Positions 4,298 through 63,294 are shown, numbered from the stretch's first letter. The stretch: DNA of 64,000 nucleotides from Octopus vulgaris (GCA_951406725.2 OX597814.1:155062001-155126000), one strand, 5' to 3'. Numbers and translations: made by a program. Notes: a model not told the origin generated them from the sequence alone.

Positions 4298-4441
4298 TAC
4301 ATTATTTACATTTGACGGATATTTGTCCTCATCTTGTTTGTTGTCAACACAACGTTTCGGCTGATATACCCTCCAGCCTTCATCAGGTGTCTTGGGGAAA
4401 TTTCGAACCTGGGTTCTCATTCCTAAGCTATTTTTTCGATG
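4298..4441 (-). repeat. Short hammerhead-bearing repeat (Penelope pLTR-like), left member of an inverted pair with 6364-6487
   Basis: Reverse complement matches 6364-6487, which has an ~18-bp deletion. Abuts (ATT)n. Confidence 0.85.
4346..4391 (-). ncRNA. Minimal type-I hammerhead ribozyme motif
   Basis: Minus strand: GACAC-CUGAUGA-A-GGCUG(loop)CAGCC-GAA-ACGU-U-GUGUU. Stem I 5 bp, stem II 5 bp, palindromic ACGU in place of stem III. Confidence 0.7.
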
Positions 4442-4518
4442 CTATTATTATTATTATTATTATTATTATTATTATTATTATTATTATTATTATTATTATT
4501 ATTATTATTATTATTATT

Positions 4519-5517
4519 CTATGTTTGACATTTGCTTTATGTCTGTACAAGTTGGCTCCAAGTCTCACCCAGAGACCTCAAGAGACAACAGGTTGTAAGT
4601 TCTGTGCCATATATTTGGGGGGGGGTTTGGTGTTGTACTAGTGAATGTCTAATACATAAAAATAAAAAAAAAAAAAGAAGTTTGTTTTAAACCTTGGGAT
4701 TACATAGAGAGTATTTTGCGTAGGATATGAGCAGTTCCCATGAGCACTATCTTTTGAATTTCTGCCATTTTGGGGTTTCCTGGTATCTGAGTTAGGTAGC
4801 AATCAGTCCCTTTCGCTATCATTCCCAGGGCACCTATGACAACATGTATTGTTTTAGTCTTCAGCTTCCACATTTTGCTGATTTCTATTTCAAGATCTTT
4901 ATATTTGCTCAGTTTTTTGGTAGGTCTTGACAGATACGTTTATATCGATTGGGACAGTCATATCAATGAGGAGGCATGTTCTTTGTCTGAAGTCTTTCAA
5001 TATGATGTCTGGCCTATTTGCATCTATCTTCCAGTCAGTTTGAATGGTGAAGTTCCAGAGGAGTGAGATGTGGTCATTTTCAAGCACTGGGGGTGGATTG
5101 TGTTCCCACCAGTTTTTTTCATGGGGAAAATCCAGGCTTTTGCAAATTACCCAGTATATATATTGTGCAGCTCTATCATGCCTGTTGAGGTACTCTGTAG
5201 GCGCTAGAAGACTGCATTTGGAGACAACATGATCAATGGTTTCATTTTGTTGTCGGCATACACGACATGTTGGGCTACTGCCGTTCTTTAATATGTTGGC
5301 CTGGTAGTTTCTTGTTGGTAGGCATTGATCTTGAGCTGCTATGATAAACCCCTCTGTTTCAGATTTTAAGCCAGAGGCCATTAGCCATTGATGGGTCAGG
5401 GCTTTGTCAATATCTGCATTATTCGCTCTCTTTGGGTATTTTCCATAGAGAGGTTTTTCTTGCCATTTATTATTCAGAATATCTAAGGCCGCAGTTTTGG
5501 CACGGGTTTTCATGCGC
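4519..5517 (-). mobile_element. 5'-truncated RLE-type non-LTR retrotransposon (R4/Dong-like), 3' end, inserted in (TAA)n
   Basis: CRVC..ETIDHVVSKC zinc knuckle, RHD, NRPDII, LIDMTVP restriction-like endonuclease motifs. (ATT)n tracts on both sides. Confidence 0.9.
4700..5513 (-). pseudogene. C-terminal CCHC + RLE domain of the R4/Dong-like element, one frameshift near 4915
   Basis: ORF 4899..5513 continues after a poly-T slip as LSKYKDLEIEISKMWKL...GTAHILRKILSM*. Confidence 0.85.
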
Positions 5518-5662
5518 TATTATTGTTATTATTATTATTATTATTATTATTATTATTATTATTATTATTATTATTATTATTATTTTTATTATTATTATTA
5601 TTATCATTATTATTATTATTGTTATTATTATTGTTATGTTATTCATATTATTGTTATTATTA

Positions 5663-5740
5663 TTCAGATCACTGCCTGGAATGGAACTCGGAATCTTGAG
5701 ATTAGTAGCCCGCGCTCTTAACCACTACGCCATATGCCCA
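5663..5740 (-). mobile_element. Mini tRNA-like SINE (~80 nt) with (AAT)n tail
   Basis: A box TGGCGTAGTGG, B box GAGTTCCATTCC, runs directly into (AAT)n. Confidence 0.75.
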
Positions 5741-5747
5741 CGGTCAC

Positions 5748-5791
5748 ACTAACCCCAAGATTCCGAGTTCGATTCCAGGCAGTGACCTGAA
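5748..5791 (+). mobile_element. 5'-truncated inverted copy of the same mini-SINE with (AAT)n tail
   Basis: caagattccgagttcgattccaggcagtgacctgaa is the reverse complement of 5663-5700 with 2 mismatches. Confidence 0.75.
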
Positions 5792-6094
5792 GAATAATAA
5801 TAATAATAATAATAATAATAATAATAATAATAATAATAATAATAATAATAATAATAATAATAATAATGCCCGATTGAAGGTGGTAGTTGGGACAATCATT
5901 ACTATAGACTCAGCTGACAGACGGATCCGTCTCACATGTGAAAGCAGCTGTTCGATATCACAAGTCAGCAAGCTCGGACACTGAACGAGTGCGTGCAGAA
6001 CGGTTTCGTCACTCTGCGCGCACCTTGAACAAGTCCATCTAACAGCACAACCATGCCTGTAGAGATTTTCTCGAACCGGTAGCGCCCCCTGGCA

Positions 6095-6291
6095 GCACTA
6101 CCAGGCCAAGGACATCTGGAAATTATCCATGATAGTAAAACATCTACAAAAATCAGCATTGCTTGGAACTGCAAGAATTCTTCGCAAGGTTCTTGAAGCA
6201 CACTACACACTGTGTCACTTTAGTCTGCTGGCTGCAGACAACTGACACTTTCCATCATACCCAGAAAAATGAGCTGTAAGTTTTCATCACA
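6095..6291 (+). mobile_element. Extreme 3' end of a second R4/Dong-like LINE followed by (AAT)n
   Basis: Translates HLQKSALLGTARILRKVLEA, homologous to IQKIVLMGTAHILRKILS of the 4.7-kb element. Confidence 0.7.
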
Positions 6292-6363
6292 TAATAATAA
6301 TAATAATAATAATAATAATAATAATAATAATAATAATAATAATAATAATAACAACAACAACAA

Positions 6364-60334: not shown

Positions 60335-60598
60335 ATCATCATCATCATCATCATCATCACCTTCATCACCACCACTACCACCAACACCACCACCATCACC
60401 ACCACCACCACCACCACCACCGCCGCCACCACCACCACCACCACCGCCGCCGCCACCACCACCACCACCACCACCACCACCACCACCATCACCATCACCA
60501 CCACCACCACCACCATCTTTTTCTTCTTTTTCTTCTTCTTCTTCTTCTTCTTCTTCTTCTTCTTCTTCTTCTTCTTCTTCTTCTTCTTCTTCTTCTTC
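60335..60598. repeat. Compound (CAT)n-(CAC/CGC)n-(TTC)n trinucleotide array
   Basis: Seen directly. Confidence 0.97.
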
Positions 60599-61134
60599 CC
60601 TACTGCTTCTGCTGGCTACCGTTGGAACAGGTTGATGTCAGAGAGGGTGGAAAGTGGAGGGTGATGGATAGTGGTTAGTAGCATGGAATGGTAGTTTATG
60701 GTTATGTACACACCAAGGAAAATCCTATGATTAGGTCTTGTAGTGTTTTTTTTTTTTCAATTATCTTTTCACAAACTAAAAAAAAAAATGTTTTATTTTC
60801 GTGTACCATTCATCATCATCATCATCATCATCATCATAATTATTATTATCATCATCATTACCACTACACCCAACCCCCACAGTCATCCGTCCCGTTTTCT
60901 TATTCTTATCTTGCTTCTTTGCACTTTACGTGTCCTGCTTCGAGTTCCTTCAGTTAGGCTAACATTGCTATCAATTTCTACTTATGAATCACTTTCACGA
61001 TGCAAATAGACAACTACATGTCCAAGTTGTGCTGGACGTTTGCTATGAGACCTTGAGAAGCGATACTTCACTGTATTATTTAAACAAAATTTAATCTGAG
61101 AGTTTGAGTGTCTCTAGTTTCACTTTTCCCCGTT

Positions 61135-61435
61135 ACTTGTTTTAGTCATTGGACTACGACCACGCTGGGGGCATAGTCTTGAAGAGTTTTAATTGAACGA
61201 AGAGGCCCACCGAACCGCTTATTTAGAATTTCATAAAGAAAACAACTACGGTAGTATAGCGGTGAGCGAGGAGACAAACACAAAGACCTAAATACATATA
61301 TATATTTATATAAAACTGGCTTCCACATAGTTACCGTCAACCAAATTCACTCGTAAGGCATTTGTCGGTCCAGGATAATTGTGAAATCCACTTGCCCAAG
61401 TTATCATTCAGTGGGACTAAACCCGAAACCATGTT
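61135..61435 (-). mobile_element. SINE family A, diverged
   Basis: ccgtcaaccaaattcactc..cagtgggactaaacccgaaaccatg. Confidence 0.7.
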
Positions 61436-61661
61436 GTCCACTAATGTTTTTTTAGCTCGATTTTTTTCTTTGCATGAGTATGTATCTGTGTGTGCGCGCG
61501 CGTGCGAGTAGAATAAAGCCTTTGAATTGTTCTATAAAACTCCAAGCTGTAGGACAATACTGGACGAAATAAATTGTTACAAACACTTTGCTCAGCAAAT
61601 CTACTACAAGTATGCAAGCAACTCATTAAACGCATAATGTAATTCATATACATACTGAAAT

Positions 61662-61989
61662 GGGTAAAGACCCCATGGGTTACGAATGACCATGGGATTG
61701 CACCTAAAAAGTTCCCCTCCGAGGCATAAATCCGGGTAAGGTTGCTTAAGGTAGACCTGCAGTTACACATGCATACCAGTTTCCTCTCTCCGCTCCACCG
61801 ATGTTGTCCAAGGGAAAGGCAAAGGCCGATACAGCTTGGCACCAGTGACGTTGCAGTTCATTTCTACAACTAAGTGAACTGGAGCAACGTGAAATAAAGT
61901 GTTTTGCTCAAGAACACAGCACAGTCAGGTCCGGGAATCGAACTCACTACATCATGATGGTGAGTCTGATGCTCTAACCATTGAGCCAT
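61662..61989 (-). mobile_element. SINE family C
   Basis: Reverse complement of the 30669 copy. Confidence 0.88.
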
Positions 61990-62332
61990 CGACTACAAAA
62001 TAGATGAACCAATTATAAAAATTTCGAGAGACTGAACGCTAAATGCATTACATCTAATCATCAATCAACACTAATGATATACTATATAAAATGCTTCAAT
62101 CAAGGACCTTGTAGAAAGAATAAACTACGGGTACGTAAAACACGACGAATCCCTAAAGGCCCAATGTTATTTGTAAAGTTATTGCAAACGTGAAAGTTGT
62201 AAACTTCCTGACCCTACCTATTTATTGGCCATGCAGTTATGACATTGTTCTGTCTGTTCGGGAAGCTCGCAAAGCACAGAGCAAATACAATACAGAGTAC
62301 CAGAAAATACAAGGCAAAAATTACACCAGAAA

Positions 62333-62660
62333 ACACATGGTTTCGGGTTCAGACCCATTGCGTGTTACTTTGGGCAAATGTCTTCTACTTTTAGCCTCGG
62401 GCCAGCCAAAGCCTTGTGAGTGGGTTTGGTAGAGTGGAGTTGGTATGTGTGTGTGTGTCTGTGTTTAAAAACCCCAACATCGCTTGAGAGCCGATGCTGG
62501 TGTTTTTACGTCCTCGTTACCTAGTGGTTCGGCAAAATACACCGATAGAATAAATACTAGGGCTTACAAATAATAAGTCCTCGGGTAGATTGGTTCAACT
62601 AAAGGTGGTGCTCCAGCATGGCCGCAGCCAAATGGCTGAAACAAGTAAAAGAATAAGATT
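62333..62660 (+). mobile_element. SINE family A, diverged (another minus-strand head at ~62738-62900)
   Basis: cacatggtttcgggttcagaccc..ggtggtgctccagcatggccgcag..gtaaaaga. Confidence 0.83.
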
Positions 62661-63258
62661 CTATAAAAGTTACGAGAGAAAAGAAACGCTTAAGTTTGCC
62701 ATATAAATGTTTCAAACACACATATATATATTTATATACAACGGGATTCTACATAGTTTCCTTTTACTAAATCCACTCAGAAGGCTTTAGGCGGCCCGAG
62801 GCTATATAGTAGCAAACACTTGTCCAAGGTGCCACGCAATGGGACTGAGCTGGAGGCATGTGGTTGGGAAGCAAGATTCTTATCAACAGCCAGGCCTATA
62901 CGCACACATATCTATCTATCTATCTATCTATCTATCTATCTATCTATCTATCTATCTATCTATCTATCTATCTATCTGTCTGTCTGTCTGTCTGTCTGTC
63001 TGTCAGTCTGTCTGCCTGTCTGTCTGTTTGTCTGTCTCTCTGTTTCCGTCTCTCTCTGTTCCTATATGTGTGTGTGTATGTGTGTGTATATATATATATA
63101 TATATATATATATATATATGTAATAATAAAGATGAGAACAGATTTATATATATATATATATATATATATATATATATATATATATATATATATGAGAGAC
63201 GCCATGATAGATCGTTAGCCACTACACACATTTTTTTCTCTCCTTGTTTTCTGTTTCC

Positions 63259-63294
63259 CTTTCTGTAGAAGAGCGTAGGCTCGAAACGTAAAAG
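63259..63294 (+). ncRNA. Minimal type-I hammerhead motif with A6>U core variant, in a ~155-bp repeat (63193-63348)
   Basis: CUUU-CUGUAGA-A-GAGC(GUAG)GCUC-GAA-ACGU-A-AAAG. Confidence 0.55.

Follow-up and report, generated by a model that had tools for sequence, protein, structure and literature searches.

A 64,000-nt stretch of the Octopus vulgaris genome (the window, to whose positions all coordinates below refer) contains six short motifs that resemble the self-cleaving hammerhead ribozyme (HHR), and it raises the question of what kind of element carries them and whether they would cut. The original prediction placed them in at least four unrelated, non-autonomous short repeats that insert in microsatellites and could cleave host pre-mRNAs. 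We consider it likely that all six are minimal type-I hammerheads, lying in the 3' repeats of three families of Penelope-like elements (PLEs) and in one tandem unit that has no open reading frame (ORF) and is likely mobilised by PLEs, and that slow cutting of dimers would release RNA of unit length. The motifs are a real and abundant instance of the minimal hammerhead (min-HHR) system already published for PLEs (PMC4209133); they stand out within that system through a family-wide A6U substitution in the catalytic core and a pseudo-long terminal repeat (pLTR) headed by a tRNA-like sequence. Genome-wide counts refer to the 2.8-Gb assembly of 227 contigs.

Six hammerhead motifs above chance expectation

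A descriptor scan recovered precisely the six predicted motifs, in four families that we call A (two motifs), B (two), C and D. Position C3 falls at 4386(-), 6399(+), 12766(-), 12923(+), 52512(+) and 63263(+), stem I measures 5, 5, 4, 4, 3 and 4 bp in the same order, and the palindromes are ACGU, ACGU, ACGUACGU (both B motifs), ACAUAUGU and ACGU. Self-complementarity of stem-loop III held throughout, with a palindromic 15.2-16.2 segment in all six. The order CUGANGA had also been claimed for all six; five are exact minimal type-I motifs, with the core C3 U4 G5 A6 N7 G8 A9 / G12 A13 A14 / A15.1-U16.1 / H17 complete in A1, A2, B1, B2 and C, whereas the motif at 63259 reads CUGUAGA, the state of its family.

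Exact CUGANGA cores with a palindromic stem III number five in the window, and six when one mismatch is allowed. Forty local dinucleotide shuffles yielded no exact motif and at most one with a mismatch, and none of them reached the real counts of 5 and 6. Across the genome, CTGANGAN{8,30}GAAACGTH has 21,988 matches, compared with 1,410 for the reversed control, and at least 39,000 exact hammerhead motif matches are present overall. Stem pairing across otherwise dissimilar families was likewise upheld: stem-I arms pair with their own partners over a mean of 3.2 bp versus 0.81 bp when swapped (in 20,000 permutations the real sum was never attained), and own stem I is at least 3 bp long in 11 of 15 family representatives versus 11% of swaps, in a set of motifs from fetched loci for which stems were not required and whose 15 representatives include mis-parsed and mutated entries.

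A chance origin within AT-rich repeats would accord with the empty result of the Rfam Hammerhead search at gathering score, with the lack of any hammerhead among the matches listed (150 of 230) in the E-value search, and with unremarkable folding z-scores, since no motif's monomer beats its own shuffles in folding energy. The controls with shuffles, with the reversed pattern and with swapped arms refute it, the placement of the motifs at the 3' ends of PLEs also speaks against it, and we give it practically no credence.

Four insertions and their link to Penelope-like elements

The families are as many and as unrelated in sequence as had been proposed. Their six motifs, however, mark four insertions, because A and B each represent one head-to-head pair: the 12719 and 12919 motifs sit in the mirror arms of a single fold-back (12431-13173), and each of the motifs at 52509 and 63259 belongs to a lone 3' end preceding (TA)n. 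Directly upstream of the repeat in A, C and D lies an ORF for a reverse transcriptase (RT) with a C-terminal GIY-YIG endonuclease (EN), as judged by homology and motifs; Pfam finds both domains in two other PLEs of this genome and not in the C or D ORFs. Judged from sequence, A, C and D are the pLTRs of three different PLEs, respectively Penelope/Poseidon-like, Hydra-like and Neptune/Nematis-like, the clades being assigned by motif only. The description of these repeats as non-autonomous thus holds for B, which is ORF-less and retrozyme-like, but not for A, C and D, which are 3' ends of protein-coding elements to which the anticipated RT and GIY-YIG masters are linked. PLE ORFs lying beside B (L195), C (L187) and D (L081) were also tried as masters and rejected, each having its own different hammerhead and (TA)n end.

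The architecture that we observe, and on which our reading rests, comprises fixed 3' ends, variable 5' truncation, back-to-back inverted arms and extension at one end only. PLE-type 5' truncation, an inverted 5'-truncated copy and one-ended extension are all present in the set with EN-encoding (EN+) PLEs (A, C and D), and the inverted arms of A and the one-sided extension of B match the PLE architecture of Craig et al. (PMC8557442). Short solo ends make up the majority of copies, and the terminus of C, D and B is (TA)n. The proposed association with microsatellites is therefore borne out for the (TA)n beside these three, whereas (AAT)n is internal to element A and no target. In the 130 nt that follow the motif on its 3' side, at least four TA units in a row are present in 31 of 34 C copies, 23 of 26 D copies and 2 of 20 A copies, against a background of 533 in 2,820; the C and D figures are perhaps somewhat inflated, because these copies are the top BLAST matches to queries that end near TA.

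Family C illustrates the coding connection. The window copy (52509) is 5'-truncated within a stem I that in the family reads GCGG/CCGC, and a 21-nt pattern for the 3' half of the motif has 1,818 exact matches genome-wide. One copy continues 2.4 kb upstream into the ORF, and the motif stands 1.6-2.5 kb downstream of the ORF end in 19 of 20 loci. Full ORFs of 842 aa show by eye DKT, RW (followed by A, not K), a CxC linker and CxxC/CxH, with no CCHH, and (TA)n. Hydra-clade PLEs (PMC8557442) likewise combine a C-terminal EN with DKT, RW, a modified cysteine linker and CxxC and CxH flanking E and N, and they share with C the absence of a visible CCHH, a canonical HHR and (TA)n insertion. The C element, placed there by motifs only, exceeds the clade's usual length of <3 kb because its 3' untranslated region takes up 1.6-2.5 kb.

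With the PLE min-HHRs of Cervera and de la Pena (2014, PMC4209133) the octopus motifs share type-I topology, a short stem I, an extra nucleotide after A9 and the palindromic 15.2-16.2, as well as a multiplicity of heterogeneous families in each genome, a predominance of single truncated copies, opposite-strand pairs 100-700 bp apart and a U3-A8 variant. Unlike those motifs, B lacks G10.1-C11.1 and C has a loop II of ~45 nt; the published consensus is CUGANGAH, and the family-wide A6U of D is absent from the parts of that paper covered. In giant squid, 235 Hammerhead_1 matches have been reported (PMC6962438), and the covered part of an octopus repeat paper (PMC13282606) does not mention ribozymes. 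What hammerheads do in PLEs is treated as open in PMC4209133 and PMC8557442.

Three further coding PLE families of this genome also end in palindromic min-HHRs, two with a U3-A8 swap and one with C4. One of the three is young and abundant (L100-L129, for example L186:1045-3396); its 784-aa ORF with RT and GIY-YIG occurs in many near-identical open copies, and it ends in a U3-A8 hammerhead ~60 nt before (TA)n. An intact PLE ORF of 775 aa at L187:7632-9956 (-) has a 3' motif with the core CCGAAGA (U4C) and an AGUACU palindrome.

A family-wide A6U core in family D

Family D was traced with a query taken from the EN C-terminal fragment upstream of one copy. Of 25 EN matches, 17, the query locus among them, are followed on the same strand by the D motif at a distance of 522-1,153 nt, and the tail module accompanies 54 of 64 EN matches; homologues are RT proteins, many of them with GIY-YIG. 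A CX2-5CxxC linker suggests, by motif only, a Neptune/Nematis affiliation for the predicted ORF. Exact D matches number 18,333, with U6 in 17,610 and A, C or G in 723, so that the family-wide core is CUGUNGA. Among the 54 ORF-linked copies, whose anchoring made no use of the core, 53 have U6, and position 7 is U in 28, C in 14, A in 9 and G in 3. D accordingly lacks the A6 of a type-I hammerhead and has a variant, not a canonical, core. The same genome also holds sister families that have A6 and a related stem II, and distant metagenome relatives of the D ORF gave two candidate motifs in 25 loci, neither with U6.

We found no natural A6U hammerhead in the literature, one key survey that may list position-6 variants lying outside the coverage. 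The A6C hammerhead of phage Bcep176, which has low Mg2+ activity and prefers Mn2+ (PMC3088659, PMC7151607), is, like D, naturally altered at core position 6; the phage change concerns a single motif, whereas D A6U amounts to >17,000 copies in several subfamilies, known from sequence. With its A6U core, D probably cuts more slowly yet has been retained as a variant. Searches whose descriptor demands CUGANGA overlook the whole of the family. In the window, a 25-nt unique segment with (TA)n appears on both flanks of D (63120-63145 and about 63370-63397), where a long target-site or local duplication is possible.

A tRNA-headed 3' repeat in family A

In 22 of 30 EN-end matches, the stop codon of a Penelope/Poseidon-like EN C-terminus, which we take to be of Poseidon type by its resemblance, stands 30-43 nt before the A head; both hammerhead halves are recognisable in 11 of the 30, and RT homology lies upstream. 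The hammerhead module is found within 1.5 kb of 23 of 30 heads, and the 35-nt A hammerhead pattern has 2,611 exact matches genome-wide. ARAGORN called no tRNA on the head.

Two readings of A, as a pLTR and as a SINE-like (short interspersed element-like) unit, both hold, because the ORF precedes the head while most copies start at it. A sample of 30 copies with a head, drawn in genome order, contains 24 that end no more than 11 nt from the head, 6 that extend 67-392 nt coding-ward and 16 with an inverted arm less than 700 nt away; a discrete 5' end at a tRNA-like head is also what characterises a SINE. A is thus the pLTR of a coding PLE, and most of its copies begin at the head as if they came from RNA polymerase III (Pol III) transcripts. 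Such transcripts are probably driven by the head, and would be copied in trans as SINE-like solo pLTRs. A standard tRNA-derived SINE with a tail from a long interspersed element (LINE) was considered and rejected: the tail is a PLE pLTR, and the insertions are inverted in PLE fashion.

We found no account in the literature of tRNA-headed, Pol III or non-autonomous pLTRs. Schistosoma Sm-alpha and Sj-alpha (PMC6765202) resemble A as short repeats in which a Pol III-type promoter is followed by a hammerhead; unlike them, A belongs to a coding Penelope/Poseidon-like PLE as its 3' repeat, contains (AAT)n and is inserted as an inverted pair. The (AAT)n of family A has been struck repeatedly by LINE or other insertions, twice at 4300-6515 and also at L157, L167, L169, L180 and L182.

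A retrozyme-like tandem unit in family B

B units of 545-564 bp (GC content 34%) stand head to tail in anything from dimers to 13-mers, often with an inverted arm, and back-to-back arrays like that of the window recur on many contigs. The B core pattern has 1,718 exact matches, the best copies being 98-100% identical; arrays end at about +240 from the motif on one arm and +337 on the other, and diverged subfamilies keep the core and exchange the palindrome for others. Units of the same array are 99.9% identical (97 pairs, one array supplying 66) and units of different arrays 92.5% (569 pairs), as might be expected if reverse transcription ran round a circular monomer. In 64 loci, tblastn with five PLE queries revealed no ORF contiguous with B.

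On the DNA side, B has the sequence make-up that defines a non-LTR retrozyme (LTR, long terminal repeat), namely ORF-less tandem units each with a type-I HHR. Published non-LTR retrozymes (PMC7229834; 10.64898/2026.07.22.740005) are likewise ORF-less, head-to-tail type-I hammerhead units with a proposed dependence on PLEs; unlike them, B shows PLE-type inverted arms and (TA)n ends. Contigs from three presumed-RNA runs span the unit and, being assembled, carry no end, strand or circle information. Long 'ORFs' at B loci were dismissed as microsatellite read-through. A possible second hammerhead in the unit (12851-12888) was rejected because it has no U4, forms a simple hairpin and is not conserved among diverged subfamilies. 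The near-perfect 330-bp fold-back at 12431-13173 is of a kind whose inverted arms would yield long double-stranded RNA, a possible editing substrate.

Features of the window

Table 1. Positions of the four insertions and their parts in the window.
Feature	Position	Strand	Remarks
Family A insertion, two back-to-back arms	4300-6515		each arm: tRNA-like head, (AAT)n, hammerhead module; a LINE fragment in each (AAT)n
A 3' module, left arm (pLTR)	4300..4442	-	ends without the ~30-nt extension
Hammerhead A1	4346..4391	-	stem I GACAC/GUGUU, CUGAUGA, 6-bp stem II, ACGU; predicted cut 4351/4350
(AAT)25, left-arm internal microsatellite	4443..4518	-	
LINE 3' fragment inside left-arm (AAT)n	4519..5517	-	presumably R4/Dong-like; zf-RVT match E 1.1e-4, below curated cut-off
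(AAT)n, rest of left-arm microsatellite	5518..5664	-	
tRNA-like head, 5' end of left arm	5666..5741	-	motifs that we take to be A-box-like and B-box-like, by eye
tRNA-like head, right arm	5748..5792	+	5'-truncated, back to back with left head
(AAT)25, right arm	5793..5867	+	
Second LINE 3' fragment inside (AAT)n	5868..6290	+	C-terminal peptide like that of the left fragment, by eye
(AAT)n(AAC)n and A 3' module, right arm	6291..6515	+	carries the ~30-nt terminal extension
Hammerhead A2	6394..6439	+	predicted cut after 6434
B left arm, part of 561-bp ORF-less tandem unit	12431..12844	-	3' end longer by ~85 nt, abuts (TA)n
Hammerhead B1	12719..12770	-	UGAG/CUCA, CUGAUGA, weak stem II without G10.1-C11.1, ACGUACGU; predicted cut between 12723 and 12722
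B right arm	12845..13173	+	99-100% complementary to left arm, no spacer, abuts (TA)n
Hammerhead B2	12919..12970	+	predicted cut after 12966
C 3' end and hammerhead	52510..52620	+	truncated inside stem I, CUGAGGA, long loop II, ACAUAUGU, then (TA)n; predicted cut after 52581
D solo 3' end (pLTR) of PLE with C-terminal GIY-YIG	63193..63347	+	between (TA)n runs
Hammerhead D	63259..63294	+	family-wide A6U (CUGUAGA), 4-bp stem II, ACGU; predicted cut after 63290

Elsewhere in the window, a repeat at 49310-49385 (+) and 12070-12150 (+) has GAAAC before CUGAAGA (CUGAAAA in the second copy) and complementary flanks, which makes it look like a permuted hammerhead, and a similar order of GAAAC before the core is seen at 7447-7490 (+) and about 428-390 (-). 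Transposase-like ORF fragments, presumably mariner-like, occupy 15239-16118 (-). A long CAA/CAG repeat at 31469-31942 (+) has an open poly-Q frame and may be a coding exon or a microsatellite, and 44200-44648, 23884-24265 and 52130-52311 are copies of another abundant short repeat (a 173-bp period array with inverted matches).

Discussion

We propose a mechanism drawn from published accounts of target-primed (TA)n insertion, dimer cleavage and possible circularisation (PMC4209133, PMC8557442, PMC6765202). The element endonuclease would nick (TA)n, and the RT would copy RNA from ~60-340 nt 3' of the hammerhead (PMC4209133, PMC8557442). Two hammerheads in a direct tandem transcript would pair through their palindromes, form stem III and cut after NUH, and the freed monomer would probably be circularised, which would explain the multimers of B. 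The window copies themselves are probably dead-end insertions, because C and D have no second motif and the paired motifs of A and B are on opposite strands.

Several observations weigh against the likely reading of PLE-derived hammerheads that cut slowly as dimers. Published min-HHRs cut weakly even as dimers (PMC4209133), eight of nine Xenopus dimers failed to cut (10.64898/2026.07.22.740005), and changes at A6 reduce activity in other hammerheads (PMC3088659, PMC7151607). In ViennaRNA cofolding of five motifs the active dimer is never the optimum and lies 6-29 kcal/mol above it, and for A and D the active dimer is, per monomer, no stabler than a monomer lacking stem III. Intact full-length ORFs of A and D were not found in the loci examined, where they are decayed or partial, and no PLE master sharing the 3' end of B was found in 64 loci with five PLE queries. 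The within-array identity of B could also be produced by unequal crossover, TTTT is present in 3 of 17 A units and absent in 14, and the scarcity of variable columns in the D hammerhead (1 of 35, N7 only, versus 36 of 188 in the flanks; Fisher p 0.013) comes from a test that treats related columns and copies as independent. Much of this would suit an account in which the PLE origin is right and the hammerheads cut little or not at all in vivo, the fold serving the PLE protein as a signal for recognition or priming, or being a passenger; Craig et al. raise the possibility of HHRs parasitising PLEs (PMC8557442). It would accommodate the spread of D to >17,000 copies with A6U, the variant cores at the ends of other coding PLEs, including the young 784-aa family, the low activity in vitro (PMC4209133; 10.64898/2026.07.22.740005) and the unfavourable target folds. 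What speaks for catalysis is that C3, U4, G5, G8, A9, G12, A13, A14, A15.1-U16.1 and a non-G17 are kept in the 54 ORF-linked D copies while N7 drifts, and that C3-G8 covaries to U3-A8 in other families, as catalysis requires; we therefore hold an account without appreciable cutting to be rather doubtful, though a serious contender.

Two further explanations concern the origin and the consequences of the copies. If each of the four families were an independent, non-autonomous retrozyme or SINE lacking a coding master of its own, it would be natural that most copies are short, that B is without an ORF, that 24 of 30 A copies end close to the head, and that none of 30 sampled D copies reaches >90 nt 5' of the core, in a sample drawn from the non-U6 minority and by an X-drop extension that may under-call in T-rich sequence. 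The ORFs directly linked to A, C and D and the six A heads that continue into the coding region speak against it, and as a whole we judge it unlikely: it is refuted as the origin of C and D, and survives for B and as the mode of spread of solo A and D copies. The suggestion that the copies matter by cleaving host pre-mRNAs draws on tens of thousands of motifs genome-wide, an abundance that could let certain B arrays, as direct tandems within introns, dimerise in cis. It finds no support, because the copies in the window cannot form cis dimers and no host gene was identified there from the ORF list read by eye. No two motifs of one family are in tandem on one strand, C and D each stand alone, without a second motif close by, and the two motifs of A, like those of B, are on opposite strands, so that a read-through transcript would carry one motif and its antisense in an expected long hairpin. 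Single min-HHRs were moreover uncut in PMC4209133, and we regard host cleavage as improbable, marginally more so than four independent origins.

We incline, by a narrow preference, to the view that a PLE lineage fixed A6U, a change that bench results would lead one to expect to be damaging, and kept all other core and stem positions while N7 diversified four ways, yet reached >17,000 copies, so that its motif would be either an undescribed variant that cuts with help (from a dimer, Mn2+ or the PLE protein) or a fold selected for a role other than fast catalysis; alongside it, the tRNA-headed pLTR of A would spread as a Penelope-dependent SINE.

Natural core variants (U6, U3-A8, C4) are thus tied to specific ORFs in one genome that also holds young intact masters and a multimeric, retrozyme-like passenger. 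With A6-bearing sister families in the same genome, D is a natural experiment on the role of hammerheads in PLEs, and a comparison of A6 with U6 would reveal how much catalysis these elements need.

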